14,154 nucleotides of DNA from a virus (taxonomy: Duplodnaviria; Heunggongvirae; Uroviricota; Caudoviricetes), in IMG/VR virus record IMGVR_UViG_2695420403_000006, positions 1 through 14,154 of that record; one strand, 5' to 3'. Made by a program: the position numbers and the translations under genes. Shown one piece after another: positions 1 through 14,154 of the stretch (the first letter of the stretch is position 1; every line of letters begins with the position of its first letter). The notes beneath the pieces are model-generated. The model was not told the origin of the DNA, searched no databases, and saw only the letters and a list, made by a program, of their open reading frames with translations.

Positions 1-747
1 CTGAACGATCTGCATCGCGCAGCAGTAGCATCTGGTGCAAATGCCAGAACCAAGGAGCCAGGAAAGTTTCTTTCCAGCCAACAAACTGTTGAGCTTGTTC
101 ATGAATTGACCAACACCCAGAATTTGGGTGTTGACCCGGTGAGTGTGATTCATGGGGGAAATGAAAGGGGAACGTATGTCTGCAAGGAACTGGTGTATGC
201 CTATGCAATGTGGATCAGCCCGTCATTCCATCTGAAGGTGATCCGTACTTTCGACATGGTAACCAGCGCACCGGAAAAATTATCCGGGCAGGCTGCTGAC
301 AAGATGCAGGCTGGTGTGATTCTGCTGGACTTTATGCGCAGGGAGTTAAACCTGTCTAACTCATCAGTGCTTGGTGCCTGTCAGAAACTCCAGGAGGCTG
401 TTGGCTTACCGAATCTGGCACCGCGCTATGCCATTGATGCTCCTGCTGACGCGCCTGATGGCTCAAGTCGCCCCACGCTGTCGCTGAGTGCACTGCTGAA
501 ACAGTATGGTATCCGCCTTACGGCTAATCAGGCATATCACCAGATGGTGAAGCTGGGGATCGTCGAGCAGCGCGAACGATACAGCCGTACCGCGATTAAC
601 AACATCAAAAAATTCTGGTCGCTGACAGCGAAAGGCTGCATGTTCGGCAAGAACATCACCAGTCCCGCAAATCCGCGCGAGACGCAGCCGCATTTCTTCG
701 AATCCCGATTCCCTGAGCTGTTAAAGCTGCTCGATACCGTTCATTGA
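1..747 (+). CDS. KilA-N domain phage protein (Roi/antirepressor-like), 5'-partial
   Basis: Reading frame is open from base 1 in frame with the ATG at 106, so the true start probably lies upstream of the window. N-terminal region carries the KilA-N-like signature (...RGTYVCKELVYAYAMWISPSFHLKVIRTFD...). Stop TGA at 745-747. Confidence 0.6.
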   Translation: MNDLHRAAVASGANARTKEPGKFLSSQQTVELVHELTNTQNLGVDPVSVIHGGNERGTYVCKELVYAYAMWISPSFHLKVIRTFDMVTSAPEKLSGQAADKMQAGVILLDFMRRELNLSNSSVLGACQKLQEAVGLPNLAPRYAIDAPADAPDGSSRPTLSLSALLKQYGIRLTANQAYHQMVKLGIVEQRERYSRTAINNIKKFWSLTAKGCMFGKNITSPANPRETQPHFFESRFPELLKLLDTVH

Positions 748-748
748 G

Positions 749-1744
749 GTGACCGTGAGAGCGCTACTGACCCCTGAAATTGCCCCGCGTATGGGGATCG
801 TATTGTTCAGGCCAGGTTCAGAGCTGATGCCCCTGTTTATGCAGGGGCGTGTCCTGCTGGAGCCTGAGCCGGAACGTTATTCATCTTTCGCCAGTGGTGC
901 TGTTCCGGCGGCATCACAACCGCTGGCGGATGATCCTGCCGTTCGGGCCGTGTTCCGCAATGAGGCAGTGATCCGTCGTGCTGGTGGCGTGGAATGTCTT
1001 GAAAGCTGGTTACTTCGTGAAAAAGGCTGCCAGTGGCCTCATTCCGACTGGCACAGCGAGAACATGACAACAATGCGACACGCGCCGGGCGCAATCCGTC
1101 TGTGCTGGCACTGCGATAACCAGCTGCGCGATCAGTTCACGGAACGGCTGGAATCAATGGCAACGGATAACTGTGCCCGCTGGGTGTTGTCTGTTGTGCG
1201 TCGGGATCTCGGTTTTGATGACAGTCACGTTGTGACAATGCCGGAACTGTGCTGGTGGCTGGTTCGTAATGACCTAGCGGATGCCTTACCGGAAAGTGCA
1301 GCCCGTAAGGCACTGAGATTACCGAAGCCTGTTGTGCCGTCTGTCACCCGGGAAAGTGACCTTGTGCCTTCGGTTCCTGCCACCAGCATCATCCAGGATA
1401 AGGCGAAAAAGGTGCTGGCGCTGAAAGTGGATCCGGAGTCGCCGGAGTCTTTTATGTTACGCCCAAAACGTCGCCGCTGGGTTAATGAAAAGTACACACG
1501 CTGGGTTAAGACACAGCCGTGTGCATGTTGTGGAAAGCCTGCTGATGATCCCCACCACCTGATAGGCCACGGTCAGGGGGGAATGGGTACAAAAGCGCAT
1601 GACCTCTTTGTGTTGCCTTTGTGCAGAAAGCATCACGACGAGCTGCATGCGGATACCGTGGCATTTGAAGAGAAGTATGGCTCCCAGCTGGAGCTGATAT
1701 TTCGTTTTATCGATCGCGCGCTGGCGATTGGTGTGTTGACCTGA
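749..1744 (+). CDS. DUF968-family phage protein (YdfU-like) with C-terminal Cys/His-rich HNH-like motif
   Basis: 331-aa ORF starting at GTG 749 (or in-frame GTG 755, preceded by GAGG at 746-749), one base after the upstream stop. C-terminus CACCGKPADDPHHLIGHG...LCRKHHDELH resembles the metal-binding motif of DUF968 nin-region proteins as I remember them. Confidence 0.6.
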   Translation: MTVRALLTPEIAPRMGIVLFRPGSELMPLFMQGRVLLEPEPERYSSFASGAVPAASQPLADDPAVRAVFRNEAVIRRAGGVECLESWLLREKGCQWPHSDWHSENMTTMRHAPGAIRLCWHCDNQLRDQFTERLESMATDNCARWVLSVVRRDLGFDDSHVVTMPELCWWLVRNDLADALPESAARKALRLPKPVVPSVTRESDLVPSVPATSIIQDKAKKVLALKVDPESPESFMLRPKRRRWVNEKYTRWVKTQPCACCGKPADDPHHLIGHGQGGMGTKAHDLFVLPLCRKHHDELHADTVAFEEKYGSQLELIFRFIDRALAIGVLT

Positions 1745-1761
1745 TTTGGTGGAGAAAGTTG

Positions 1762-2124
1762 ATGCGTGATATTCAGATGGTTCTGGAGCGTTGGGGAGCA
1801 TGGGCGGCGAGTGATAGTTCTGGAGTAGACTATTCGCCTATAGCTGCTGGGTTTAAGGGGCTTCTTCCCTACACAAGCAAAACACGTCAGGCTTGTTCAG
1901 ATAGTGATGCATTAATTATTGAAGGTTGTCTTGCTCTTCTTAAAAAGCGAAAACCGTACGAGCATTCTTTGATTGTGGCCCATTACCTGTATGGTATCTC
2001 GAAAAGAAAGCTTGCAAGAGCTCGCAAAAAAGATGAGAAATTGATACGTATAGAGATACAGATGGCTGAAGGGTTTATTGATGGATGCCTTTCAATGCTG
2101 GATGTTAAACTTGAAATGGAGTAG
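1762..2124 (+). CDS. Late-gene antitermination protein Q, small QuuD-like type
   Basis: ATG at 1762 preceded by GGAG at 1751-1754 (the ORF track begins at TTG 1759). The ~120-aa product MRDIQMVLERWGAWAA... matches the N-terminus of DLP12-type small Q antiterminators as I remember them. Position immediately upstream of the lysis region is canonical for Q. Confidence 0.75.
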   Translation: MRDIQMVLERWGAWAASDSSGVDYSPIAAGFKGLLPYTSKTRQACSDSDALIIEGCLALLKKRKPYEHSLIVAHYLYGISKRKLARARKKDEKLIRIEIQMAEGFIDGCLSMLDVKLEME

Positions 2125-2149
2125 AAAAAAGGGCATTTCTGCCCTTTTT
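2125..2149. terminator. Bidirectional rho-independent terminator between convergent Q and the minus-strand cassette
   Basis: AAAAAA-GGGCA-TTTC-TGCCC-TTTTT: 5-bp GC-rich stem (2131-2135/2140-2144), 4-nt loop, A-run upstream and T-run downstream, so it works on both strands. The T-run overlaps the TAA stop (complement of 2148-2150) of the minus-strand membrane-protein gene. Confidence 0.7.
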
Positions 2150-2591
2150 AAATGTGGGGGAGTATCCAGTTTACTTTTCTCCATGTAAAGGCAAAAGTTA
2201 TTACTGAAATGATAAGAAGAGATAAAGATTCGATAATTAAAATAAATTCTATTTTTTCTCCATGTAACAATGTCTTTTCATTGGCAAACATTGCTATCAA
2301 AGCAATAACGCATGCCGTAATTAAAGATGCACCTGCGGTTAATAGATTTACAATAATAACTTGAAGTATGTTGTTGTTTTTTAATGCTTTTATTATTCCA
2401 TTTGAGTTTTCGCTGGCAGCACTAAAAATTGATATTGTGGCTAAAATAAAACCAAATAAAATACCGGATACAGTTGAAATAACCCCGGAGGCTGTAAGTA
2501 TGTCAGCATGCCCCATCTGAGGGATATACCTCAGTAGGAACAAGGTGCAAAAAACACTTACAATCAGGTTTCTTAAGTATTTCAATAACAT
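2148..2591 (-). CDS. Small polytopic inner-membrane protein (about 4 TM helices), RexB-like candidate effector of a two-gene exclusion module
   Basis: 147-aa ORF with four long hydrophobic segments (about residues 9-23, 31-60, 75-103, 114-137). Start lies 3 nt downstream of the stop of the upstream minus-strand gene, with a GAAGG RBS inside that gene's 3' end. AT-rich codon usage distinct from the backbone. Size, topology and the motif LLRYIP resemble lambda RexB as I remember it. Confidence 0.6.
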   Translation of the reverse strand: MLLKYLRNLIVSVFCTLFLLRYIPQMGHADILTASGVISTVSGILFGFILATISIFSAASENSNGIIKALKNNNILQVIIVNLLTAGASLITACVIALIAMFANEKTLLHGEKIEFILIIESLSLLIISVITFAFTWRKVNWILPHI

Positions 2592-2594
2592 ATC

Positions 2595-3536
2595 CTATAC
2601 CTTCTTTTTGCTGATATCGTATTGCTTAAGGTATTCATTGTTATCAATTTTAGCAGAAATCATGGCTTGCAGAACATCACTATCAGTGCCATAACCATTA
2701 ACGGTATATATGTTTTTTTCTGAAATGAGTACCTGATCAAGAAGACTTTGTTCAACGGTATTTTTGGGCTGTGTTACTGCCGCTTTTTTTACAATTCCCG
2801 GCATTTTTTCAAGGAGTTCTTTAATACCATCCTTAACGAGATCTGATAAATAACCTTTGACTTTTACTCTCCCTGATGCACGTCCCCTTAGATTTAACTT
2901 GAGACGTGTTCCACCCAGCCCTACCATCATATTTACCAGTTCCTTAGAAAATGAACTATTTAGCTGGTAATTTGTTGCATCAAAGTTCCTGGGAGCAGCC
3001 AGGACAATATCACAACTTCTCAAAGTACTTCCTGTTTCAAGTAGCTCTTTGACGCTCTCTTTTTTCCAGATGGCTTGGAATGAAAAGTTATTTCCAGGAT
3101 TACCACTCTGGCTGTAAAGCAGATAAGCTAAATCCGATTCTTTCGGCCCAAGATGATTTTGAGTTAATATTAAAATATCACTATCGTAATAATATAAAAA
3201 ATAGGTTCTTTCGACTATGTATTTTTTATCATCTAGTGGTATGTTGTGCTCATTCCAGTGTTCATCACCAATATAAGGAAGGAGATACTCTTCTCGTGAG
3301 CATGACATGTAGCCGAAGAAATATTTAGCTTTTGTATCTTTATTTATAAAAGCTATTTTTAACTTTTTATTTCTATAGATGGTATCAAAATGATTATTCG
3401 TAACGGTTACGCAAGTATTATACAGATTTTCAATTGCTTGCTTAGCAACTGAATGGCTGCGGATAGTCCCAGAACTGCTGGTGTAAAAACCAATTTTAAG
3501 TTTTTTTTGTTTCTTTGATTGCGCAATAGTAGCCAT
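2595..3536 (-). CDS. Soluble 313-aa protein, RexA-like candidate sensor/activator of a two-gene exclusion module
   Basis: ORF with AAGG RBS 6 nt upstream of the ATG (complement of 3534-3536); no hydrophobic segments; AT-rich. N-terminal KIGFY and internal LGPKESDLAYLL are reminiscent of lambda RexA (GFY..., FGPTTSDLTDFL) as I remember it. Operonic with the downstream membrane protein gene. Confidence 0.55.
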   Translation of the reverse strand: MATIAQSKKQKKLKIGFYTSSSGTIRSHSVAKQAIENLYNTCVTVTNNHFDTIYRNKKLKIAFINKDTKAKYFFGYMSCSREEYLLPYIGDEHWNEHNIPLDDKKYIVERTYFLYYYDSDILILTQNHLGPKESDLAYLLYSQSGNPGNNFSFQAIWKKESVKELLETGSTLRSCDIVLAAPRNFDATNYQLNSSFSKELVNMMVGLGGTRLKLNLRGRASGRVKVKGYLSDLVKDGIKELLEKMPGIVKKAAVTQPKNTVEQSLLDQVLISEKNIYTVNGYGTDSDVLQAMISAKIDNNEYLKQYDISKKKV

Positions 3537-3668
3537 GTTAAACCTTAGTATACTAATAATTTCTTATGGGGCTTATTTTTTATATGGCTTTAATTTAGCA
3601 AAAAAAATTACCGCGGTCCGCAAATTTTATCTTAATCTGTTAAGAGTGGTTACTTCGCCACACAGCTT
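3537..3668. promoter_or_regulatory. AT-rich intergenic control region: expected promoter for the minus-strand cassette and expected Q-dependent late promoter/qut for the + strand lysis operon
   Basis: Inferred from gene arrangement. Possible -10-like hexamers are TATACT (3551-3556, either strand) and CTTAAT (3631-3636, +) with a TTACCG -35-like element 17 nt upstream, but none is strong. No transcript data. Confidence 0.3.
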
Positions 3669-3700
3669 AAACCCGCCGTCGAGCGGGTTTTGTCGTTTCT
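3669..3700 (+). terminator. Rho-independent terminator resembling lambda tR' (late-promoter-proximal terminator)
   Basis: ACCCGC (3671-3676), 6-nt loop CGTCGA, GCGGGT (3683-3688), followed by TTTTGTCGTTTCT. Stem sequence and position upstream of the holin match my memory of lambda tR' (ACCCGCCGAAGCGGGTTTTT). Confidence 0.55.
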
Positions 3701-3841
3701 GGGCCTAGGGATTCGTTGGGCCTGGTCTATCCCGCAGTTATCCATTGGCTCGGCTTCTTTGACGTTTCCGCTTCTGATTTGCGGTACATGATGTTCCCTC
3801 AATTTGCACCTCCTGTATTGCGAGGTGAGAGATAACTACAA

Positions 3842-4168
3842 ATGCCTCATAACCCAAATACCTGGCTGGAGTTGGTCCAGAGCTGGTGGCGTGGAGACAC
3901 ACCGCTGGGCGCAGTGATTATGTCGATTGTTATGGCTGGTTTACGTATTGCCTATTTTGGCGGTGGTGGCGGCTGGAAGCGAAAAACACTCGAAATTCTA
4001 CTCTGTGGCGCTCTGACGCTGACTTTTGCATCCGCTCTTGAGTATGTCGGATGGCCTAAATCACTATCTGTTGCCATTGGTGGTGGGGTGGGGCTGATCG
4101 GTGTTGATGCTATTCGTGGGGCTGCAATGAGAGTAATCGGTAATAAGTTTGGTGGCTCTAAGGAGTAA
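3842..4168 (+). CDS. Holin (class I-like, three predicted TM helices, charged C-terminus)
   Basis: 108-aa ORF immediately upstream of the endolysin gene (3-nt gap). Three hydrophobic segments and a basic C-terminal tail (RGAAMRVIGNKFGGSKE). Position is canonical for S. Confidence 0.7.
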   Translation: MPHNPNTWLELVQSWWRGDTPLGAVIMSIVMAGLRIAYFGGGGGWKRKTLEILLCGALTLTFASALEYVGWPKSLSVAIGGGVGLIGVDAIRGAAMRVIGNKFGGSKE

Positions 4169-4171
4169 TTT

Positions 4172-4648
4172 ATGCAGGTACTAAATTCCCAGCGTAAAGC
4201 TTTCCTCGATATGGTGGCATGGTCAGAAGGAACGGATAACGGGCGACAACCGACACGTAATCACGGTTATGATGTTATTGTTGGCGGCGAACTGTTTACT
4301 GATTACTCTGATCACCCTCGCAAACTTGTCACGCTAAACCCCAAACTCAAATCAACAGCCGCCGGACGTTATCAGCTTCTTTCACGCTGGTGGGATGCCT
4401 ACCGTAAGCAGCTTGCTCTGAAAAACTTCTCCCCCAAAAGCCAGGACGCTGTGGCACTGCAACAGATTAAAGAGCGTGGCGCTTTACCGATGATTGATCG
4501 CGGTGATATTCGTCAGGCTATCGACCGTTGCAGCAATATCTGGGCGTCGTTACCCGGTGCAGGTTACGGTCAGTATGAACATAAAATCGGTGATTTGATT
4601 GCCCGGTTTAAAGAGGCTGGTGGGGTGGTAAATGAAGCTGAGCTATAA
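4172..4648 (+). CDS. R: Endolysin, lambda R-type lytic transglycosylase
   Basis: 158-aa product shares long identical runs with lambda R as I remember it (QRKAFLDM.AWSEGTDNGRQ.TRNHGYDVIVGGELFTDYSDHPRKLVTLNPKLKST.AGRYQLLSRWWDAYRKQL...ALQQIKERGALPMIDRGDIRQAIDRCSNIWASLPGAGYGQ), including the catalytic Glu in the AWSEG context. Confidence 0.92.
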   Translation: MQVLNSQRKAFLDMVAWSEGTDNGRQPTRNHGYDVIVGGELFTDYSDHPRKLVTLNPKLKSTAAGRYQLLSRWWDAYRKQLALKNFSPKSQDAVALQQIKERGALPMIDRGDIRQAIDRCSNIWASLPGAGYGQYEHKIGDLIARFKEAGGVVNEAEL

Positions 4649-5024
4649 GCTGGTTATCGCTGGTTTCTTCGTTACTGTCATTGGTTCTTTCATCTGGTCG
4701 GCCAACCACTACTACAGCAAATATCAGTACGAAAAGAAACGTGCTGATGAGGCTGTACGAAATGCTGAATCAGCAACTGCCATTACCAATAACGTCCTGC
4801 AATCAATACAAATCGTAAATACAGTTCTGGAGGCTAACCAGCATGCAAAACAGCAGATCGCACTGGAGTCACAGAGAACCCAGGAAGATATCAAAGTGGC
4901 TGTTGAGAATGATGATTGCGCTTCCCGTCTTGTTCCTGCTCGTGCAACTGAGCGGCTGCGCCGGTACGCGGACAATTTACGTGCCAGTTCCGGCGGTACC
5001 ACTACCGGCGAACCTGACCGCTGA
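4632..5024 (+). CDS. Rz: Rz-type i-spanin (inner-membrane spanin subunit)
   Basis: 130-aa ORF overlapping the endolysin stop. N-terminal TM anchor (LVIAGFFVTVIGSFIW) followed by a charged, coiled-coil-like periplasmic domain. Canonical position after R. Confidence 0.75.
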   Translation: MKLSYKLVIAGFFVTVIGSFIWSANHYYSKYQYEKKRADEAVRNAESATAITNNVLQSIQIVNTVLEANQHAKQQIALESQRTQEDIKVAVENDDCASRLVPARATERLRRYADNLRASSGGTTTGEPDR

Positions 5025-5166
5025 AACCCCACAGCCAGCTATTCCTGATCCGCTGACTTACAGAGATAGTCTGGATTTAAACGTGAGCCTGCTGTCAGTG
5101 CTGGCTGCCTGTAATAGGGATAAGGCTGATATTCGTAAAATTGAAGCAGAGAAGAGTGAGCCATGA
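4909..5166 (+). CDS. Rz1: Rz1-type o-spanin (outer-membrane lipoprotein), overlapping the 3' end of Rz in the +1 frame
   Basis: Start chosen at the ATG-ATG pair at 4909 within the track ORF 4843..5166. Product begins MMIALPVLFLLVQLSG-C with a lipobox (LSGC) and a Pro-rich mature region. It extends 142 nt beyond the Rz stop, i.e. overlapped rather than fully embedded. Confidence 0.7.
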   Translation: MMIALPVLFLLVQLSGCAGTRTIYVPVPAVPLPANLTAETPQPAIPDPLTYRDSLDLNVSLLSVLAACNRDKADIRKIEAEKSEP

Positions 5167-5360
5167 AGCAGTAAAGTGGAAAGACCGCAGCAAGAAGTGC
5201 CTGTTCAGCATTAATGAAGATGCCTCAAATACCTAAAATAGCGAGTAGCCAGATGCACGTCAACTACGAGTGTGTGGCCAGCATAACGTTGTATAAACTA
5301 AGTGATAGCAGAGTTCAATATACGTATACTGAGAGAACTATTTCTATTTGAGAACTGAAA

Positions 5361-5954
5361 ATGACGGACTATACTTTTTTTTACTGGATAGAGATGCTTC
5401 TTAAAGAAGGCAATGTTTTATTTATTGTTCTTGCTTGTTTGATTGTCTTTTTTACTTTAAAAAAAGAAATAATAATGGTTTTAGGTCGTCTTAATACAGT
5501 TAAGCTAGGTGACTATGAGATTAAATTTAAAAAAGAAATGTTTGAAATAGAATCTAAAAGTATAGAGGTTATTAAAAATTTACCTGGAACAAATCTTGTC
5601 CTGCCGACACAACTCATTGAGAATTTCAATATTTTTGAGAGTCTTGCTAGTACTCAGCCTAATGTTGCTGTACTTTCAGCTTGGCGCGAATTGGAGTTAA
5701 CCGCTATAACGCTTGCATCTAAAAAGGGGATTGAGATCAACGGGACATCTTTAGGGCGGGCTTCAGGTATCGCTGCCTTGAAAAATGTCCAATCTGCAAA
5801 CAAAATTTCTAGTGACATTGTTAAGCTTTATGAAAAAACAGGAGAGTCTATTAAGCCTATATCCCAAGGAAAGCTCTTATGTACTCAGGAAGATGCTTTG
5901 GCATTCTGTAAGAATGCAAAAAGACTTAGCAATTATTTAACATCCATATTTTAG
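5361..5954 (+). CDS. Hypothetical membrane-anchored cargo protein (N-terminal TM helix plus about 150-aa soluble domain), function unknown
   Basis: 197-aa ORF in a strongly AT-rich island at the bor-equivalent position between spanins and packaging genes. Hydrophobic segment VLFIVLACLIVFFTL near the N-terminus. Weak RBS; start could alternatively be the in-frame ATG at 5394. Confidence 0.6.
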   Translation: MTDYTFFYWIEMLLKEGNVLFIVLACLIVFFTLKKEIIMVLGRLNTVKLGDYEIKFKKEMFEIESKSIEVIKNLPGTNLVLPTQLIENFNIFESLASTQPNVAVLSAWRELELTAITLASKKGIEINGTSLGRASGIAALKNVQSANKISSDIVKLYEKTGESIKPISQGKLLCTQEDALAFCKNAKRLSNYLTSIF

Positions 5955-5996
5955 TATGTATCCATAGAGCATCCATTATTATTGGAGTAGTCGTTA

Positions 5997-6023
5997 CAGC
6001 AGGCATTCACTGAGTGCCTGCTG
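5997..6023. other. Perfect 9-bp inverted repeat/hairpin between convergent ORFs (possible U-tract-less terminator or protein-binding palindrome)
   Basis: CAGCAGGCA (5997-6005), 9-nt loop TTCACTGAG, TGCCTGCTG (6015-6023). No T-run on either side. Confidence 0.4.
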
Positions 6024-6030
6024 CTGAACT

Positions 6031-6243
6031 CTAATAGCAAGATGGAGAATCTGCATTAAATTTTTGAGAGAGATTACTTATTTCATTCACTCCCTTATGA
6101 TTAAGTAATCGCCTAATATTTTCTGGAGCCTTGAATATAAATGGGCCTTTTAGATCCTCGATGATTCCTCCTGCGACGCAGATCAAATGCTTGAAATCAA
6201 CATCTTCAATTGTGGGCTTGGAGTCCAGATTATCGCTTGTCAT
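6031..6243 (-). CDS. Small hypothetical protein (70 aa), AT-rich cargo ORF
   Basis: Minus-strand ORF with a plausible RBS (AAAGGA, about 9 nt upstream of the ATG on the minus strand) and the same AT-rich composition as the neighbouring 197-aa gene. No recognisable family. Confidence 0.35.
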   Translation of the reverse strand: MTSDNLDSKPTIEDVDFKHLICVAGGIIEDLKGPFIFKAPENIRRLLNHKGVNEISNLSQKFNADSPSCY

Positions 6244-6307
6244 TTAAAAACATCCTTTCTTGCCATTAGCAGCATTGAGCATGTTATGGAATCTGTAATT
6301 TAGGATG

Positions 6308-6330
6308 CTGGTACTACCAGTACTTTTTTT
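6308..6330 (+). terminator. Weak candidate intrinsic terminator upstream of the HNH gene
   Basis: Palindrome CTGGTA-C-TACCAG (6308-6320) followed by a 7-T run (6324-6330). The stem is short, so the call is tentative. Confidence 0.3.
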
Positions 6331-6372
6331 GTTTCATTTTGTGAATCACCTCATTTACGAGGGGAGCCTATC

Positions 6373-6723
6373 ATGCCACCACGAACACCAAAAGCCTGCC
6401 GTGTTCGCGGCTGCCGCTCTACAACCACAGACCCTTCAGGCTACTGCGAAAGCCACAAAAGCGAAGGCTGGAAGCAATACAAACCTGGACAATCCCGTCA
6501 TCAGCGCGGCTACGGTTCGAAGTGGGACAGTATCCGCGCGCGTGTCCTGAAGCGTGACAAAGGCCTGTGTCAGTTATGTCTGCGTGCTGGTGTGGTGCGT
6601 GAGGCGAAGACCGTTGACCACATCATCCCTAAATCGCATGGCGGCACTGATGTCGACAGTAATCTGCAGAGTTTGTGCTGGCCGTGTCATAAGGCGAAGA
6701 CGGCCCGTGAACGGCTGAAGTAA
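6373..6723 (+). CDS. HNH endonuclease (terminase-associated, HK97 gp74-like)
   Basis: 116-aa product with Cys-rich N-terminus (CRVRGCRSTTTDPSGYCESH) and HNH core (DHIIPKSHGGTDVDSNLQSLCWPCH). Strong RBS GAGGGGAG upstream. Location immediately before terS is typical of HK97-type packaging modules. Confidence 0.85.
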   Translation: MPPRTPKACRVRGCRSTTTDPSGYCESHKSEGWKQYKPGQSRHQRGYGSKWDSIRARVLKRDKGLCQLCLRAGVVREAKTVDHIIPKSHGGTDVDSNLQSLCWPCHKAKTARERLK

Positions 6724-6749
6724 GAACCAGTTCCCACTGCCAGAGGGGA

Positions 6750-6809
6750 GGGGCGGGTCAAATCCCTGTGACCTGACGTCTTCCGGACTGCCCGCCCCAT
6801 CGTTTTTTT
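6750..6809 (+). other. GC-rich long hairpin plus T7 run in the HNH-terS intergenic region; candidate terminator and/or part of the cos/packaging-site region
   Basis: GGGGCGGG (6750-6757) pairs with CCCGCCCC (6791-6798) around a 33-nt loop containing the GACGTC palindrome, followed by ATCG-TTTTTTT (6803-6809). In HK97-type phages cos lies between the HNH gene and terS. Confidence 0.4.
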
Positions 6810-6848
6810 ATACCCGCGAAAAATGAAATTTAACCAGGAGAGCCGCAT

Positions 6849-7343
6849 ATGGCTGGAACGGCGGGGCGTTCCGGGCGTCGCCCCAAGCCAACGGCGCGCA
6901 AGGCGCTGGCCGGAAACCCCGGCAAGCGAGCCCTGAATAAAGATGAACCTGTTTTTACGCCCATCAAAGGTGTTGACCCACCGGAGTGGTTCGCTGAAGA
7001 AGATCTCCCTCTCGCCACGATCATGTGGCAACTGACAACCAAAGAACTCTGCGGTCAGGGCCTGCTGTGCGTGACTGACCTGGCGGTACTTGAGCGGTGG
7101 TGCGTGGCCTATGAGTTCTGGCGACGTGCCGTGAAAAATATTGCCAGACAGGGCAACACCATCACCGGTGCAATGGGCGGTATGGTCAAAAATCCGGAGC
7201 TGACCGCCAAAAAAGAACAGGAGTCCGAGATGAGCAGTACGGGGGCAATGCTCGGACTCGACCCCAGCAGCCGCCAGCGTCTGATTGGCCTGGCGGGGCA
7301 GAAGAAAGCCACTAACCCGTTTCTGAAAATCATCGAATCATGA
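6849..7343 (+). CDS. terS: Terminase small subunit (P27 / HK97 gp1 family)
   Basis: 164-aa product with basic N-terminus ([34 protein letters not shown]...) characteristic of P27-family small terminases. RBS AGGAGA 7 nt upstream. Stop overlaps the terL start (ATGA at 7340-7343). Confidence 0.85.
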
Positions 7344-9073
7344 GCCGGAAATCTTACCCCAACGTAAATGCTGCCAATCAGTATGCCCGTGATGTCGTGC
7401 GCGGAAAGATTGTGGCCTGCCAGTTTGTGATTCAGGCCTGCCAGCGCCATCTTGATGACCTGATGGAGGAAAAAAGTAAGTCGTTTCGTTACCGCTTCGA
7501 CAAGGACCTGGCTGAACGGGCCGCCAAATTTATTCAGCTGTTGCCGCACACTAAGGGGGAGTGGGCATTCAAGAGGATGCCCATCACGCTGGAGCCGTGG
7601 CAGCTCTTTGTGATCTGCTGCGCGTTTGGCTGGGTCAATAAAGGCTCCCGGCTGCGCCGCTTCCGTGAGGTGTATACCGAAATCCCCCGTAAGAACGGCA
7701 AATCGGCAATCTCTGCCGGTGTCGCCCTGTATTGTTTTGCCTGTGATAACGAATTCGGCGCGGAAGTGTATTCCGGTGCCACGACGGAGAAACAGGCATG
7801 GGAAGTCTTTCGTCCGGCAAGACTGATGTGTAAACGCACACCCATGCTGACGGAAGCGTTCGGGATTGAGGTTAACGCCTCAAACATGAACCGTCCGGAG
7901 GATGGTGCGCGTTTTGAACCGCTGATCGGTAACCCCGGTGATGGTTCATCACCCCACTGTGCGGTGGTGGATGAATATCACGAGCACGCCACAGATGCGC
8001 TTTACACCACGATGCTTACCGGGATGGGGGCGCGACGTCAGCCACTGATGTGGGCTATCACTACCGCCGGGTACAACATTGAGGGGCCGTGCTACGACAA
8101 ACGGCGGGAAGTCATCGAGATGCTCAACGGCTCGGTGCCTAACGATGAACTGTTCGGGATCATCTATACCGTTGATGAAGGTGACGACTGGACCGACCCG
8201 CAGGTGCTGGAAAAAGCTAACCCAAATATTGGCGTGTCGGTTTATCGCGAATTTTTGTTAAGTCAGCAGCAGCGTGCGAAAAATAACGCCCGTCTGGCAA
8301 ACGTCTTTAAAACAAAACACCTCAATATCTGGGTGTCGGCGCGTTCGGCGTATTTCAACCTGGTGAGCTGGCAGAGCTGCGAGGATAAATCACTGACCCT
8401 TGAGCAGTTCGAGGGGCAGCCGTGCATTCTGGCCTTTGACCTGGCGCGTAAGCTGGATATGAACAGCATGGCGCGACTTTATACCCGCGAGATTGACGGT
8501 AAAACGCATTACTACAGTGTGGCCCCGCGTTTCTGGGTACCGTATGACACGGTGTACAGCGTCGAGAAAAATGAAGATCGACGGACAGCCGAACGCTTTC
8601 AGAAATGGGTGGAAATGGGCGTTCTGACCGTTACCGATGGTGCGGAGGTGGATTATCGCTACATCCTCGAGGAGGCCAAAGCGGCGAACAAAATCAGCCC
8701 GGTCAGTGAGTCACCCATCGACCCCTTCGGGGCGACCGGGTTGTCACATGACCTTGCTGATGAAGACCTGAACCCCATCACTATCATTCAGAACTACACC
8801 AACATGTCCGACCCGATGAAAGAGCTGGAAGCGGCAATTGAATCGGGGCGCTTTCATCATGATGGCAATCCCATCATGACCTGGTGTATCGGCAACGTGG
8901 TCGGCAAAACCATTCCGGGTAACGATGATGTGGTGAAGCCCGTCAAAGAGCAGGCGGAAAACAAAATCGATGGTGCAGTTGCGCTGATTATGGCGGTTGG
9001 CAGAGCCATGCTGTACGAGAAAGGAGACACGTTGTCTGACCACATTGAGTCCTATGGGATCCGCTCGCTTTAA
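7340..9073 (+). CDS. terL: Terminase large subunit (HK97 gp2-like ATPase/nuclease)
   Basis: 577-aa product with Walker A-like motif ([14 protein letters not shown]) and a downstream acidic motif (AVVDEYHEH). Size and position are typical. Confidence 0.93.
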
Positions 9074-9084
9074 CTGAGGTAATT

Positions 9085-9267
9085 ATGATCATGCTGATTC
9101 TCGCGCCTCTGGTGGGCGTGCTGGGGGCGCTTTTGCTGGCGTATGGTGCCTGGCTGATTTATCCCCCGGCGGGGTTTGTTGTTGCCGGGGCGTTGTGCCT
9201 GTTCTGGTCGTGGCTGGTGGCGCGATATCTTGACCGTACACAGTCGTCTGTCGGCGGAGGTAAATAG
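9085..9267 (+). CDS. Small membrane protein (two predicted TM helices) between terL and portal
   Basis: 60-aa ORF with GAGG RBS (9077-9080) and two hydrophobic segments. Its TAG stop overlaps the GTG start of the portal gene (TAGTG at 9265-9269), suggesting translational coupling. Confidence 0.5.
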
Positions 9268-10508
9268 TGTTCTTTTCGGGATTATTTCAACGAAAAAGTG
9301 ACGCACCGGTGACCACGCCAGCAGAGCTGGCGGAGGCTATCGGGTTGTCCTACGACACCTATACCGGAAAGCAGATCAGCAGCCAGCGGGCCATGCGACT
9401 GACGGCGGTTTTTTCCTGTGTCAGGGTGCTGGCGGAGTCGGTCGGGATGTTGCCCTGCAACCTGTATCACCTGAACGGCAGCCTGAAGCAGAGAGCCACC
9501 GGCGAGCGTCTGCATAAGCTGATCTCCACGCATCCCAATGGCTATATGACGCCGCAGGAGTTCTGGGAGCTGGTGGTCACCTGTCTGTGCCTGCGGGGAA
9601 ACTTTTACGCCTACAAAGTGAAAGCATTTGGCGAAGTGGCTGAACTGCTGCCCGTCGATCCCGGCTGTGTGGTACCGAAGCTTAACAGTAGCTGGGAGCC
9701 GATCTATCAGGTCACATTCCCGGATGGCTCCACGGATGTACTGAGCCAGGAGGATATCTGGCATGTGCGCACGCTGACGCTGGACGGACTGGTGGGGCTG
9801 AATCCCATCGCCTATGCCCGCGAGGCAATATCGCTGGCAGCTGCGACCGAAGAGCACGGGGCCAGACTGTTCAGCAATGGCGCGGTGACGTCGGGTGTGT
9901 TGCGTACAGAGCAGACGCTGTCAGATCAGGCTTATGAGCGCCTGAAGAAAGATTTTGAGGAGCGTCACACCGGGCTTGGCAATGCTCACCGCCCGATGAT
10001 CCTTGAGATGGGGCTGGACTGGAAGTCGATGGCGCTGAACGCCGAGGACAGCCAGTTCCTGGAAACCCGCAAGTTTCAGCTTGAAGAAATCTGTCGTCTG
10101 TTCCGGGTGCCGTTGCACATGGTGCAGAACACCGATCGCGCCACCTTCAACAATATCGAAGAGCTGGGGCTGGGATTTATCAACTATTCACTGGTGCCGT
10201 ATCTGACCCGCATCGAACAGCGGATCAACACCGGACTGGTACGAAAAAGTAAGCAGGGCGTTTATTACGCCAAATTTAACGCCGGGGCGTTACTGCGCGG
10301 GGATATGAAGTCCCGTTTTGAAGCCTACGCCACCGGGATCAACTGGGGAATTTACTCTCCCAATGACTGCCGCGACCTGGAAGATATGAATCCGCGTCCC
10401 GGTGGTGATGTCTATCTCACACCGATGAACATGACCACGAAACCCTCCGATGGCAGTAAAGCCGGTAAGCAGAAGGATAACGCCAATGCAGACGAAACAA
10501 CGTCTTGA
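9267..10508 (+). CDS. Portal protein (HK97 family)
   Basis: 413-aa product starting at GTG 9267 with GGAGG RBS at 9255-9259. Size, position after terL and internal motifs (...FRVPLHMVQNTDRATFNNIEE...) fit HK97-type portals. Confidence 0.92.
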   Translation: MFFSGLFQRKSDAPVTTPAELAEAIGLSYDTYTGKQISSQRAMRLTAVFSCVRVLAESVGMLPCNLYHLNGSLKQRATGERLHKLISTHPNGYMTPQEFWELVVTCLCLRGNFYAYKVKAFGEVAELLPVDPGCVVPKLNSSWEPIYQVTFPDGSTDVLSQEDIWHVRTLTLDGLVGLNPIAYAREAISLAAATEEHGARLFSNGAVTSGVLRTEQTLSDQAYERLKKDFEERHTGLGNAHRPMILEMGLDWKSMALNAEDSQFLETRKFQLEEICRLFRVPLHMVQNTDRATFNNIEELGLGFINYSLVPYLTRIEQRINTGLVRKSKQGVYYAKFNAGALLRGDMKSRFEAYATGINWGIYSPNDCRDLEDMNPRPGGDVYLTPMNMTTKPSDGSKAGKQKDNANADETTS

Positions 10509-11136
10509 TGTACCGCTGAGTCTGAAATCTGTCAGTGACTCCGGTGAGTTTGAAGGGTATGGCTCCGTCTTTGGTGTAAAGGACAGCCACGATGATGTGG
10601 TGATGTCCGGGGCATTTGCTGCTTCCCTGCGGGCGTGGAGTGACAGAAAATCGTTACCTGCGCTGCTCTGGCAGCACCGCATGGATGAACCCATCGGTGT
10701 TTACACCGAAATGAAGGAAGACGATGTCGGGCTTTACGTCAGGGGACGGTTGCTTATTGATGATGATCCCCTCGCAAAACGCGCACATGCACACATGAAG
10801 GCCGGTTCGTTAACCGGCCTTTCTATTGGGTACGTCCTGAAAGACTGGGAATACGACCGGAGCAAAGAAGCCTTTCTGCTGAAAGAAATCGACCTCTGGG
10901 AAGTCAGCCTGGTGACGTTCCCGTCTAACGACGAGGCGCGGATCAGCGACGTCAAGAACGCACTGGCCCGCGGGGAAATCCCCGAACAGAAAAAAATCGA
11001 AAGAGTCCTGCGTGATGTCGGACTCTCCCGTACCCAGGCCAAAGCATTCATGGCCGGGGGCTATGGCGCACTGTCCCTGCGCGACGCTGAGGATGTGGGC
11101 TCTGCACTGAATGCACTGAAAAATCTGAACTTCTAA
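10486..11136 (+). CDS. Prohead maturation protease (HK97 gp4 / S78 family)
   Basis: Start chosen at ATG 10486 (GAAGGA RBS 8 nt upstream, 23-nt overlap with the portal gene) rather than the track start 10450, which lacks an RBS. Product (...GYGSVFGVKDSHDDVV...LWQH...) fits the HK97 protease family. Confidence 0.88.
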   Translation: MQTKQRLDVPLSLKSVSDSGEFEGYGSVFGVKDSHDDVVMSGAFAASLRAWSDRKSLPALLWQHRMDEPIGVYTEMKEDDVGLYVRGRLLIDDDPLAKRAHAHMKAGSLTGLSIGYVLKDWEYDRSKEAFLLKEIDLWEVSLVTFPSNDEARISDVKNALARGEIPEQKKIERVLRDVGLSRTQAKAFMAGGYGALSLRDAEDVGSALNALKNLNF

Positions 11137-11150
11137 TCAGGAGAAATACG

Positions 11151-12356
11151 ATGGCGGTTGATATTAAAGATGTCGAACAGGTCGCGCAGGAGCTGCAGCA
11201 GAAGTTTGACGACTTCAAAGCAAAGAACGACAAGCGCGTGGATGCGATTGAGCAGGAAAAAGGCAAGCTTGCCGGGCAGGTGGAAACCCTGAACGGGAAA
11301 CTCAGCGAGCTGGAAAATCTCAAAAGCGACCTTGAAAAAGAGCTGCTTGAGCTGAAACGTCCGGCAGGTGGAGCGCAAAATAAACTGGCCACCGAGCATA
11401 AAGAGGCGTTTGTGGGCTTCCTGCGTAAAGGCCGTGAAGACGGTCTGCGCGATCTGGAGCGTAAGGCATTGCAGGTGGGTACCGATGAAGACGGTGGCTA
11501 CGCCGTGCCGGAAGAACTGGATCGCAACATTCTTAACCTGCTGAAAGATGAAGTGGTGATGCGTCAGGAAGCCACGGTGATCACCGTTGGCGGTTCCGAC
11601 TACAAAAAACTGGTGAATCTGGGCGGTACGGCTTCCGGATGGGTGGGGGAAACGGATACGCGATCCCAGACTGCCACCTCCAGACTGGAGCTGATTGAAC
11701 CTCTCATGGGGGAAATCTACGGCAACCCGCAGGCTACCCAGAAAATGCTGGACGATGCCTTCTTCAACGTGGAGGCCTGGATCAACAGCGAGCTGGCAAC
11801 CGAATTTGCCGAACAGGAAGAAATTGCCTTTACCACCGGCGATGGCACCAAGAAGCCGAAAGGGTTCCTGGCGTATGAATCCACTGATGAAACCGACAAG
11901 GTCCGGGCGTTCGGCAAACTTCAGCATATTGTATCCGGCGAAGCGACCGCGGTGACCGCAGACGCCATTATCAAACTGATTTACACGCTGCGTAAGGCAC
12001 ACCGCACTGGCGCGAAGTTCATGATGAACAACAACAGCCTGTTTGCCATCCGTCTGCTGAAAGACACCGAGGGTAACTATCTGTGGCGTCCGGGGCTGGA
12101 ACTGGGGCAGCCGTCCTCTCTGGCGGGTTACGGTATCGCTGAAAACGAACAGATGCCGGATATCGCCGCGGATGCGAAAGCCATTGCATTTGGTAACTTC
12201 AAACGGGGTTACACCATCGTTGACCGTATCGGCACCCGCATTCTGCGTGACCCGTACACCAATAAACCGTTTGTCGGTTTTTATACCACCAAGCGCACCG
12301 GCGGGATGCTGGTCGATTCGCAGGCCATCAAACTGCTGAAGATTGCAGCGGCGTAA
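11151..12356 (+). CDS. Major capsid protein, HK97 fold with N-terminal delta (scaffold-like coiled-coil) domain
   Basis: 401-aa product. The N-terminal ~100 aa are highly charged and coiled-coil-like (delta domain). Strong RBS AGGAG 7 nt upstream. Position after the protease is canonical. Confidence 0.93.
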   Translation: MAVDIKDVEQVAQELQQKFDDFKAKNDKRVDAIEQEKGKLAGQVETLNGKLSELENLKSDLEKELLELKRPAGGAQNKLATEHKEAFVGFLRKGREDGLRDLERKALQVGTDEDGGYAVPEELDRNILNLLKDEVVMRQEATVITVGGSDYKKLVNLGGTASGWVGETDTRSQTATSRLELIEPLMGEIYGNPQATQKMLDDAFFNVEAWINSELATEFAEQEEIAFTTGDGTKKPKGFLAYESTDETDKVRAFGKLQHIVSGEATAVTADAIIKLIYTLRKAHRTGAKFMMNNNSLFAIRLLKDTEGNYLWRPGLELGQPSSLAGYGIAENEQMPDIAADAKAIAFGNFKRGYTIVDRIGTRILRDPYTNKPFVGFYTTKRTGGMLVDSQAIKLLKIAAA

Positions 12357-12405
12357 TCACTCAGGGGCGCGGAACCGCGCCTCCTGTTCTGACGGGTGAA
12401 GAATC

Positions 12406-12606
12406 ATGATCCTGAAACAAGATCTGAAATGGTCACCGGACGGTATGCGTGTTGAGGTCATTCGGGCCGGTGAGTATGACGACGGGGCGCTTCCTGCCCG
12501 GGTGCAGGAGATTGCACTTCAGGCCGGGTTAGCAGAGCGCGGAACCAGTGCAAAAAGCAGTAAAGCGACAAAAGAGAAAAAAGCCACGACCAGTAAAGAG
12601 GGCTGA
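12406..12606 (+). CDS. Small hypothetical head-module protein with Lys/Ser/Thr-rich C-terminal tail
   Basis: 66-aa ORF directly after the capsid gene, in the codon usage of the backbone. C-terminus SAKSSKATKEKKATTSKEG is low-complexity and basic. Confidence 0.45.
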   Translation: MILKQDLKWSPDGMRVEVIRAGEYDDGALPARVQEIALQAGLAERGTSAKSSKATKEKKATTSKEG

Positions 12607-12608
12607 GT

Positions 12609-12932
12609 ATGCTTCTGACAATGGAAGAGATTAAAGCCCAACTCCGGCTGGATGAGGATTTCGATGCTGATGACCGCCATCTGCAACTGCTGGCCTGTGC
12701 GGCGCAAAAGCGGACGGAAACGTATCTGAACCGGAAGCTCTATGCACCGGATGAAACCATTCCGGACAGCGACCCGGACGGACTACACCTGCCGGATGAT
12801 ATTCGTCTGGGGATGCTGATGCTTATCAGCCATTTTTACGAAAACCGCTCGTCGGTTACGGAAGTGGAGAAACTCGACATGCCGCAGAGTTTTGGCTGGC
12901 TTGTTGGCCCGTACAGGTACTTTCCGCAATGA
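12609..12932 (+). CDS. Head-tail connector protein (HK97 gp6-like)
   Basis: 107-aa product with the N-terminal signature EEIKAQLRLDEDFDADD...LL..AAQ...E.YLNR typical of gp6-like connector proteins. RBS AAGAGGG upstream. Stop overlaps the next gene's start (ATGA). Confidence 0.72.
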   Translation: MLLTMEEIKAQLRLDEDFDADDRHLQLLACAAQKRTETYLNRKLYAPDETIPDSDPDGLHLPDDIRLGMLMLISHFYENRSSVTEVEKLDMPQSFGWLVGPYRYFPQ

Positions 12933-13339
12933 AAATTCGTCAGGCGCAGACCAGCGCAACCTACATTCTGCCGGACCCCGGCGAACTGAATAAACGCGTC
13001 CTGATCCGCCAGCGGGTGGATATGCCCGCGGATAACTTTGGCGTGGAGCCTCAATACCCGGTTGCGTTCCGGGCATGGGCGAAGGTTGTCCAGACCAGTG
13101 CCACCACCTGGCAGGAAACCGCGCAGACCGGAGACGCCATCACCCATTACATCACCATTCGCTACCGCCGGGGGATCACCGCTGATTATGAGGTGGTCTG
13201 CGGTGACAGTGTGTACCGGGTGAAACGTCAGCGCGATCTGAACGGTGCGCGGCGCTTTCTGCTGCTGGAGTGTACGGAGCTGGGCGAATTTACGCAGAGT
13301 CACGGAGGCAGCAATGGCGACTCCCTTTTTTCACGTTGA
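12929..13339 (+). CDS. Head closure / head-tail adaptor protein (Phage_H_T_join-like)
   Basis: 136-aa ORF in canonical position after the connector gene. Overlaps the next gene by 26 nt. Confidence 0.65.
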   Translation: MKIRQAQTSATYILPDPGELNKRVLIRQRVDMPADNFGVEPQYPVAFRAWAKVVQTSATTWQETAQTGDAITHYITIRYRRGITADYEVVCGDSVYRVKRQRDLNGARRFLLLECTELGEFTQSHGGSNGDSLFSR

Positions 13340-13820
13340 TGTTCAGCAGCCCGCGGAGATGCGCTTTAACCGCGCCCGTGTCCGGCGGGCGTTTGTCACG
13401 ATTGGGCAGCGTCATATGCGTGATGCTCGTCGGCTGGTGATGCGCCGTGCGCGGTCGGCACCGGGTGAAAACCCCGGTTATCAGACCGGACGCCTGGCTC
13501 GTTCGATTGGTTACATGGTGCCGGGAGCCAGTAAAAAGCGAGCCGGTTTTATGACACGCATTGCCCCTAACCAGCGCAACGGGAAGGGGAACCGGATGAT
13601 CTCTGGTGACTTCTATCCGGCGTTTCTGTTTTTTGGTGTCCGGGGAGGAGCAAAACGTCGTCGTAGTCATCATCGTGGTGCATCCGGTGGCAGCGGCTGG
13701 CGGCTGGCTCCACGTAATAACTTTATGGTGGAAACTCTTGAAAAGAACCGCAGCTGGACACGCTATTTTCTGGCGCGGGAATTACGTAAATCACTGAAGC
13801 CGGAGCGACGACGCAGATGA
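13314..13820 (+). CDS. HK97 gp10-family neck/tail-completion protein
   Basis: Start chosen at ATG 13314 (GGAGG RBS at 13304-13308, 5-nt spacer) rather than track start 13245. Product MATPFFHVDVQQ... has the arginine-rich composition of gp10-like proteins. Confidence 0.7.
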   Translation: MATPFFHVDVQQPAEMRFNRARVRRAFVTIGQRHMRDARRLVMRRARSAPGENPGYQTGRLARSIGYMVPGASKKRAGFMTRIAPNQRNGKGNRMISGDFYPAFLFFGVRGGAKRRRSHHRGASGGSGWRLAPRNNFMVETLEKNRSWTRYFLARELRKSLKPERRRR

Positions 13821-14154
13821 AACTGACGCCTGTTATTGCTGCGCTGCGTGCCCGCTGCCCGTATTTTGAAAACCGGGTGGCAGGCGCGGCACAGTTCAAA
13901 AATCTGCCGGAGGTCGGAAAGCTGAGACTCCCGGCGGCGTATGTGGTACCGGGTGATGACTCTCCGGGAGAAAACAAAAGCCAGACCGACTACTGGCAGG
14001 AGCTGAAAGAGGGCTTCTCCGTGGTTGTCATACTGAGTAACGGGCGTGATGAGCGCGGTCAGTTTGCCTCGTATGATGTGGTGGACGATGTCCGGCAGAT
14101 GCTCTTTAAGGCTCTGCTGGGCTGGAACCCGGAAGCGTGCGGTAACCCGATTAC
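13817..14154 (+). CDS. Phage tail-side structural protein (possibly tail terminator / DUF3168-like), 3'-partial
   Basis: ATG at 13817 overlaps the upstream stop (ATGA). Frame stays open to the window end (MKLTPVIAALRARCPYFENRVAGAAQFKNLPEVGKL...), which is why it is absent from the ORF track. Confidence 0.5.
   Translation, partial: MKLTPVIAALRARCPYFENRVAGAAQFKNLPEVGKLRLPAAYVVPGDDSPGENKSQTDYWQELKEGFSVVVILSNGRDERGQFASYDVVDDVRQMLFKALLGWNPEACGNPI

Follow-up and report, generated by a model that had tools for sequence, protein, structure and literature searches.

A rare prophage cargo gene encoding a predicted membrane-anchored HEPN protein with a degenerate catalytic motif

We analysed a 14,154-nt stretch of DNA (the window), positions 1 to 14,154 of the IMG/VR virus record IMGVR_UViG_2695420403_000006. 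Its list of open reading frames (ORFs), its Pfam matches and an annotated genome 99.9% identical to it mark it as a lambdoid prophage of Escherichia coli. Between the lysis and packaging genes, at 5361-5954, lies a gene (the target) for a 197-amino acid (aa) protein. A first reading of the letters (the original prediction) had described the soluble domain of this protein as unassignable to a family, which was not borne out. Profile comparisons show a predicted DUF4145-type HEPN domain with a four-helix up-and-down fold. They also show, at the level of aligned sequences, that the protein belongs to a small, prophage-restricted and monophyletic clade within a large family of stand-alone transmembrane (TM) HEPN proteins, and that predicted members of this wider family span bacterial phyla and temperate phages. 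We propose with moderate confidence that the target is an inner-membrane, cytoplasm-facing pseudo-HEPN protein that acts by binding and serves in lysogenic conversion as an exclusion or defence factor.

Family assignment

Scanned directly, the target protein has no match in Pfam (E-values up to 1), NCBIfam or the PDB sequences, and in PHROGs it matches an unannotated family only. An exhaustive profile search retrieved 265 representative relatives with E-values up to 1e-3, nearly all of them 180-200 aa long and matched over most of their length. Family members share an N-terminal hydrophobic 'LAWP' helix, a K-Y-x-D-x-E-x-x-F motif, a linker and a helical domain. Towards the start of this domain lies S-P-x-A-A-I-x-E-A-W-R-x-x-E, and towards its end L-R-x-L-R-N-x-A-x-H. 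PF13643 (DUF4145) is matched by 37 of the 54 aligned members (E-values up to 0.1, best 6.3e-8), and other aligned members match the RiboL-PSP-HEPN, Swt1-HEPN and HepT models.

The prophage clade aligns to the catalytic family over 186 columns in hhalign (99.9%, E-value 3e-32). The first-helix signature A-W-R-E-x-E and the domain order of the target match those of the family members that match PF13643. The link between the target and PF13643 is a transitive one, made through the wider family. Already known were the HEPN/DUF4145 superfamily, the bor/iss moron slot discussed below and proteins in which DUF4145 is fused to a TM segment, which Anantharaman et al. 2013 had listed (PMC3710099). What is new is the stand-alone TM-HEPN family as a coherent unit, together with a prophage-restricted clade of putative pseudo-enzymes that has a conserved promoter-gene-terminator cassette. 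We found no report in which the stand-alone family has been characterized.

Loss of the catalytic motif

About 80% of the 150 relatives listed carry R-N-x-x-x-H at approximately residue 150, and about 80% of DUF4145 proteins retain the Rx4-6H motif (PMC3710099). This motif is absent from all eight clade members (P0001-P0008). In the hhalign alignment, the family residues R152, N153 and H157 stand opposite I164, K165 and a gap, and the MAFFT columns agree on the loss. The target protein contains no histidine, and none is conserved in the clade. In a neighbour-joining tree the motif-less clade is monophyletic and nested among catalytic members. The nearest catalytic subgroup (with 'AWRELELAA' and 'VSGIAA') includes intermediates that have kept the arginine and lost the histidine. 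Residues invariant and specific to the clade are R133-A-S-G, K141, Y157, K165, S168, C174, D178, C183, N185 and K187.

Since the catalytic arginine and histidine are both lost, binding, and not RNA cleavage, is the probable mode of action of the target, and the standard HEPN abortive-infection mechanism does not apply to it as such. The protein might still be an enzyme, with a rewired His-free site or a Cys-based metal or redox site, in which case it would be an infection-triggered membrane nuclease or toxin and act as an abortive-infection effector. We consider this unlikely. It would account for the clade-invariant polar residues, including K165 and S168 inside the former motif, for C174 and C183 beside it, and for the strong purifying selection on the domain; some HEPN families do cleave RNA using alternative residues (PMC3710099). 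However, the clade has no conserved histidine and no arginine at the motif position, and the HEPN literature compared here offers no example of a HEPN RNase that works without histidine. There is also no antitoxin-like partner: the adjacent ORF70 (Table 1) is an orphan that is not conserved with the target.

Reality and start of the gene

The ORF is present as originally described, on the plus strand and with an ATG start. The probability that a 197-codon open frame arises by chance at the base composition of the island is about 5e-7. Measured against a homologue of 72% DNA identity, the ratio of non-synonymous to synonymous substitution rates (dN/dS) is 0.15 for the whole gene and 0.148 over codons 1-40, which places the whole frame, including the part for the N-terminal hydrophobic segment, under purifying selection. 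The target is a real gene under purifying selection.

Public annotations disagree on where it starts. The Prokaryotic Genome Annotation Pipeline (PGAP) places the start at 5394 (M12, 186 aa) and the PHROG family at M39 (5475, 159 aa), which removes the TM helix. Residues 1-17, with F7, W9 and EMLLKEG, are kept in six of the seven aligned clade proteins, and the seventh was called from a later ATG. Because of this conservation and the dN/dS values, we favour the ATG at 5361, and with it the 197-aa form, over both alternatives.

One further E. coli protein, P0009 (62 aa), is a truncated variant of the target that is identical over about 57 residues and then runs out of frame. At least one strain thus carries a disrupted copy of the target gene.

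Predicted topology

The original description of one N-terminal TM helix followed by a soluble domain agrees with hydropathy and charge prediction. The only strongly hydrophobic segment covers approximately residues 18-33, with a Kyte-Doolittle mean of up to 2.2 over 19 residues. Its flanks have a net charge of -2 on the N side and +3 to +4 on the C side, from which the positive-inside rule predicts an N-out/C-in orientation. The HEPN domain would then be cytoplasmic and tethered at the inner membrane. An AlphaFold2 (AF2) model has a single continuous helix over residues 17-72.

A bor-like lipoprotein was considered and rejected, since the n-region is acidic, there is no K or R in the first seven residues and the lipobox context is missing. 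The sequence 'VLAC26' sits in the middle of the hydrophobic helix with seven further hydrophobic residues after it. No family in Pfam or NCBIfam matches the target.

An AT-rich cargo slot

The G+C content is 33.8% for the target gene and 36.5% for the whole insert from 5167 to 6372, compared with 49% for the lysis genes and 55.8% for the DNA downstream. This is the compositionally foreign AT-rich island that had been described from the letters. A search with the segment from the lysis genes to the small terminase subunit (TerS) gene found related prophages in about 3000 E. coli genomes. On the left, homology to these prophages is lost at approximately 5104-5175; on the right it returns exactly with the HNH start codon at 6373. 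In NZ_AP041805 the slot is empty, the gap between Rz1 and HNH being 26 bp as against 1206 bp in the window. Elsewhere it holds iss (a bor homologue, on the opposite strand), two hypothetical genes, or a DUF6236, DUF2441 or GrlR-family gene. The slot, empty in one relative and variously filled in others, is a genuine moron hotspot. The original phrase 'bor-equivalent position' proved literally correct, as iss fills the identical slot in one related prophage and the slot is empty in another.

Expression of bor from the lambda prophage is established. Like the target, lambda bor and E. coli iss are small AT-rich morons that occupy the slot directly after Rz/Rz1 in related prophages. They differ from it in encoding outer-membrane lipoproteins on the opposite strand, whereas the target, which lacks a lipoprotein signal and is read in the same direction as the late genes, has a predicted cytoplasmic orientation. 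The proteins share neither sequence nor fold similarity.

The AT-richness of the target persists across its lineages. In all seven homologous lineages the gene has a G+C content of 33-36% and its flanks 40-53%. Amino acid identity among these lineages falls to 34-69%, and at the DNA level the window resembles the homologous loci within the ORF only.

The 1.3-kb target region occurs in 20 of 5426 complete E. coli genomes, always on the chromosome and always in the LysC-HNH interval. The carrier strains come from chickens, pigs and humans. The island is absent from 50,697 GenBank phage records searched by megablast and tblastn, and the protein has no tblastn match among 72,556 PLSDB plasmids. 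Scans of IMG/VR and of Joint Genome Institute (JGI) metagenomes recovered the E. coli allele and one fragment only. The label 'orphan' thus describes the close relatives well, as these are very rare (7 clusters among 5.8 billion proteins, and the 20 genomes above), but it does not hold for the 265 relatives of the profile search.

The island also contains ORF70, a convergent ORF absent from the PGAP annotation. Homologues of it are lacking outside the E. coli island, and it is not linked to the target in other lineages; on these two grounds a two-gene or toxin-antitoxin reading was rejected. Rfam models detect no RNA element in the island.

Candidate regulatory sites

A classical moron consists of promoter, gene and terminator, has a foreign composition and lies between genes that are adjacent elsewhere. 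Judged by its predicted sites, the target fits this description at the lysis/packaging junction. The original prediction of cargo in a lysis/packaging moron hotspot is thus upheld, and the cargo looks like an autonomous promoter-gene-terminator unit.

A sigma70-like promoter candidate precedes the gene in the window (Table 1). A similar site (AAGTGnnA, 17 nt, TAnAnT) is found in all seven lineages with a defined ATG, its -10 hexamer ending 29-32 nt upstream of that codon. The chance of such a site is 1.4-6.6% per locus. By their upstream DNA the seven lineages form at least four groups, with little similarity between groups. Overlapping the -10 candidate is an 18-bp near-perfect palindrome, TCAATATACGTATACTGA, which may be an operator.

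On the 3' side, a GC-rich hairpin that separates the target stop codon from that of ORF70 is a candidate terminator or stabilizer, without a U tract. Canonical terminators, with a stem and a U run, lie directly 3' of the stop codon in three homologous loci (L003, L008 and L106). In the window, the right edge of the island has a terminator-like hairpin followed by CTTTTTTTGT at 6306-6332 on the plus strand, a short distance 5' of the HNH gene. By its predicted structure, it would stop transcription not modified by Q ahead of the packaging genes.

We infer that the target is transcribed from its own candidate promoter and, in addition, by Q-antiterminated late read-through. Given its own promoter, it is probably transcribed in the lysogen.

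Genomic context of relatives

In five of the seven lineages of the prophage clade, down to 34% aa identity, the target homologue lies directly 3' of the spanin gene or genes and on the same strand. The families of holin, endolysin and spanin vary between these cassettes, as do the packaging modules downstream. Of the other two homologues, one adjoins a UmuD-like phage gene and one adjoins other PHROG families.

This arrangement could point to a lysis-associated membrane protein, made together with the holin, endolysin and spanins, that adjusts when lysis occurs or, late in infection, switches off RNA or translation functions of the host at the membrane; we consider such a role improbable. In its favour are the position after the spanins, kept while the lysis-gene families vary, and the predicted inner-membrane location of the target. 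However, close prophages lyse without the target, as seen from slots that are empty or filled by unrelated cargo. Two lineages have it away from the lysis genes, and the wider family is unlinked to them. The gene's own candidate promoter, its terminators and its persistent AT-richness mark a moron rather than a member of the cassette, and bor/iss is equally faithful in position yet is no lysis gene.

For the wider family, 80 loci from many phyla were retrieved and 73 analysed. No neighbour is conserved in the 73 loci; adjacent genes range from housekeeping genes to SMODS, SLATT, AbiEii, DUF4238, AAA_13, YafO and transposase genes. The wider family is a stand-alone gene in variable regions.

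Two catalytic members are found in temperate phages. In the Escherichia P1-like phage D6, orf24 (annotated as a DUF4145 domain-containing protein) has the dar/ddr anti-restriction genes on one side and the portal gene on the other. In the Pseudomonas P2-like phage UFJF_PfPro, the homologue adjoins the integrase. Both resemble the target in length (186-189 aa), in their ALAWP TM helix, K-x-x-x-E-x-x-F motif and HEPN domain, and in occupying temperate-phage accessory slots. They differ from it in keeping the motif, as LRSLRNEAAH and VRNDAVH respectively, and are predicted active RNases. The phage types and slots also differ from those of the target prophage, and the proteins are about 20-30% identical to the target. 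The D6-type gene occurs in 20 of 5426 E. coli genomes, on D6-like plasmid prophages and as 11 chromosomal copies. The chromosomal copies are 60-80% identical in DNA to D6 orf24.

HEPN RNases need dimers to form their composite active site. The target might therefore be an anti-defence decoy, that is, a dead HEPN that as a dominant-negative mimic heterodimerizes with, and poisons, the catalytic TM-HEPN of a host or a rival prophage. It would protect its own phage during late gene expression or after induction. To this reading we assign a low probability. The clade arose within a catalytic family, among whose members it is nested and with which it shares architecture and membrane targeting, and the gene is embedded in the late operon and co-directional with it. 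Late structural proteins set off the HEPN defences known so far (PMC13043305, PMC11087260, PMC13017515), and catalytic family members do exist in E. coli. These are rare, however (0.4% of genomes), and only about 20% identical to the target, which makes a specific heterodimer doubtful. Two further enterobacterial catalytic members, of Citrobacter and Morganella, have no counterpart in E. coli at the DNA level. The gene also has its own candidate promoter and terminator, as lysogenic-conversion morons do, whereas anti-defence genes are typically early genes.

Proposed function and comparison with known systems

Our preferred reading is the binding pseudo-HEPN described at the outset. The ligand of the dead HEPN domain would be a protein or nucleic acid of phage origin, bound at the membrane. 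An incoming competitor could then be blocked by sequestration at the site of genome entry; in another version, the membrane could be perturbed through the TM helices. We infer that exclusion or defence is the most likely role, with an anti-defence decoy possible. We base this on the moron architecture, on the slot and on earlier examples of prophage HEPN defences and of non-catalytic HEPN binders.

Single HEPN/DUF4145 proteins act as prophage or host defences in RAZR (PMC13017515), HepS (PMC13043305) and Tha (PMC11087260). HepS (Gifsy-1) and Tha (Staphylococcus aureus prophages) require an intact Rx4-6H motif and sense tail proteins, according to the sections of the two reports drawn on here (PMC13043305, PMC11087260); the target, in contrast, lacks the motif. 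Those sections describe no membrane anchor for either protein (PMC13043305, PMC11087260), whereas the target is predicted to be membrane-anchored, and HepS is described there as cleaving tRNA anticodon loops (PMC13043305). The H105A substitution abolishes defence by HepS (PMC13043305), as substitutions of R146 or H154 do for RAZR (PMC13017515). RAZR/PD-T7-4, a zinc finger joined to DUF4145, shares the helical HEPN fold with the target, and RAZR is a single-protein defence (PMC13017515). In the target a TM helix replaces the zinc finger, and the R and H essential to RAZR defence are missing.

Non-catalytic HEPN domains are known as binders, for example MtlR (PMC3710099). MtlR/YggD and the HEPN domains of sacsin and Swt1 are soluble host or eukaryotic proteins that, unlike the target, have neither a phage context nor a TM anchor. 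The HEPN-TM anti-phage system of phage-inducible chromosomal islands, from Fillol-Salom et al. 2022, is said to consist of two genes, for a HEPN protein and a TM protein, with the HEPN active. As far as the papers that cite it describe it, this system resembles the target in placing HEPN and transmembrane modules on an enterobacterial mobile element (PMC11087260, PMC12948488).

A host-fitness or regulatory factor unrelated to phages is improbable in our view. The non-catalytic HEPN would bind a host protein or RNA at the membrane and alter the physiology of the lysogen, much as MtlR binds HPr. The similarity to MtlR is one of shared fold only, and the family relatives lie in variable, partly defence-like contexts.

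The original suggestion of a single-gene defence or fitness factor appears more plausible given the HEPN ancestry of the protein and the examples of HepS, Tha and RAZR; loss of the motif complicates it. Several observations weigh against the exclusion/defence reading that we prefer. All characterized HEPN defences need the motif that is missing here, so the mechanism must differ from theirs. PADLOC-DB 2.0.0 defence hidden Markov models (HMMs) give zero families for the target at E-values up to 1; members of the wider family give only weak, scattered matches to HEPN or TM models of that database. The polar residues R109, E110, E112, R133, S135, K141, Y157, K165, S168, D178, N185 and K187 are invariant in the clade and, with the Cys pair C174/C183, make an alternative active or cofactor site conceivable. 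Co-directionality with the late operon and the position after the spanins (five of seven lineages) would also suit a role late in the lytic cycle. Promoter and terminator assignments are consensus matches only, and a window-wide promoter scan was not enriched over shuffled sequence, with 6 sites found against 3.6 +/- 2.1. Hydropathy and charge are the whole basis of the predicted topology. The AF2 model was built on seven sequences only and has a mean predicted local distance difference test (pLDDT) score of 78, and a Foldseek search with it against BFVD and PDB returned no significant E-values.

Features of the window

Coordinates of the target, its parts and its neighbours are collected in Table 1. 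Genes 3' of HNH encode a P27-type TerS and the large terminase subunit (TerL), followed by the portal, protease and capsid proteins.

Table 1. Positions of the target, its protein segments and surrounding features in the window
Feature	Position	Strand	Remarks
DUF968 protein	749-1744		Upstream of Q
Q antiterminator	1759-2124		
First AT-rich island	2148-3536	-	Between the Q antiterminator and holin genes
Lambda-type holin	3842-4168		
GH24 endolysin	4172-4648		
Rz (i-spanin)	4632-5024		130 aa; N-terminal TM helix; overlaps Rz1/LysC
Rz1/LysC o-spanin gene	4843-5166	+	Left flank; last gene of the lysis cassette
AT-rich cargo island (moron slot)	5176-6372	none	About 1.2 kb; from Rz1 to the HNH endonuclease gene
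Sigma70-like promoter candidate	5302-5330	+	GTGATA-17-TATACT; consensus score 9/12; -10 end 30 nt before the ATG
Candidate operator palindrome TCAATATACGTATACTGA	5315-5332	none	16/18 matches; overlaps the -10 candidate; unique in the window, 0 expected by chance
Target coding sequence	5361-5954	+	197 aa; predicted TM-anchored DUF4145-like HEPN protein with degenerate catalytic motif
Residues 1-17	5361-5411	+	Short acidic N-terminal tail, predicted periplasmic; conserved F7, W9, EMLLKEG; helix 4-15 in the AF2 model
Residues 18-33	5412-5459	+	Predicted TM helix; C26 invariant throughout the clade; equivalent to the hydrophobic 'LAWP' helix of the wider family
Residues 34-82	5460-5606	+	Basic juxtamembrane segment and long helical stalk; motif K-x-G-D-x-E-I-x-F
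Residues 83-197	5607-5951	+	Predicted HEPN-fold domain; helices 83-95, 100-121, 136-145, 151-168, 176-196
Residues 164-169 (IKPISQ)	5850-5867	+	Degenerate site of the family R-N-x-x-x-H RNase motif
GC-rich hairpin	5997-6023	none	12 bp; between the target and ORF70 stop codons; free energy (dG) -28.4 kcal/mol, z -3.8
ORF70	6031-6243	-	Convergent 70-aa orphan ORF; matches phrog_22590; gene status uncertain
HNH endonuclease gene	6373-6723	+	Right flank; first gene of the packaging module

The Rz gene is unannotated in the near-identical RefSeq genome NZ_CP134370, which lists lysC only, and is annotated as a DUF2570 protein in a related genome. The first AT-rich island (34.5% G+C) encodes a 313-aa DUF6731 protein (phrog_7651) and a 147-aa multi-TM protein (phrog_8552). 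The two genes form an apparent operon, and neither product matches a PADLOC model. In the homologous prophage L106, the slot equivalent to this first island holds an AAA_15/AAA_21 ATPase gene and a gene for a 380-aa protein, and resembles a defence system. A further cargo hotspot is seen in the prophage with the P0008 homologue, between a Terminase_2-family gene and a gene for a 547-aa protein just before the portal gene (9672-10141 in L106 and 9480-10193 in L107). It contains either DUF6953/DUF2158 genes or a PemK-like toxin pair.

Significance

On the most far-reaching interpretation, which we regard as speculative and unlikely, the prophage has domesticated a membrane HEPN abortive-infection RNase into a dead paralogue. 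This would act as a decoy against a rival TM-HEPN (e.g. a D6-like one) or in an RNase-independent exclusion at the inner membrane. It would define an uncharacterized, widespread single-gene TM-HEPN immune family with a pseudo-enzyme offshoot. Without a phenotype, the target gene would simply join the rare morons of unknown function.

Because active and dead paralogues share one architecture, they can be compared and the motif can be restored or swapped. If the proposal is true, the bor/iss slot of lambdoid prophages gains a type of cargo that faces the cytoplasm and is not a lipoprotein, and the clade would be a natural case of a HEPN pseudo-enzyme that is carried by a mobile element and maintained by strong purifying selection. 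The stand-alone TM-HEPN family of about 190 aa, with 265 representative clusters in many phyla and in P1-like and P2-like phages, would be a candidate single-gene conflict system.

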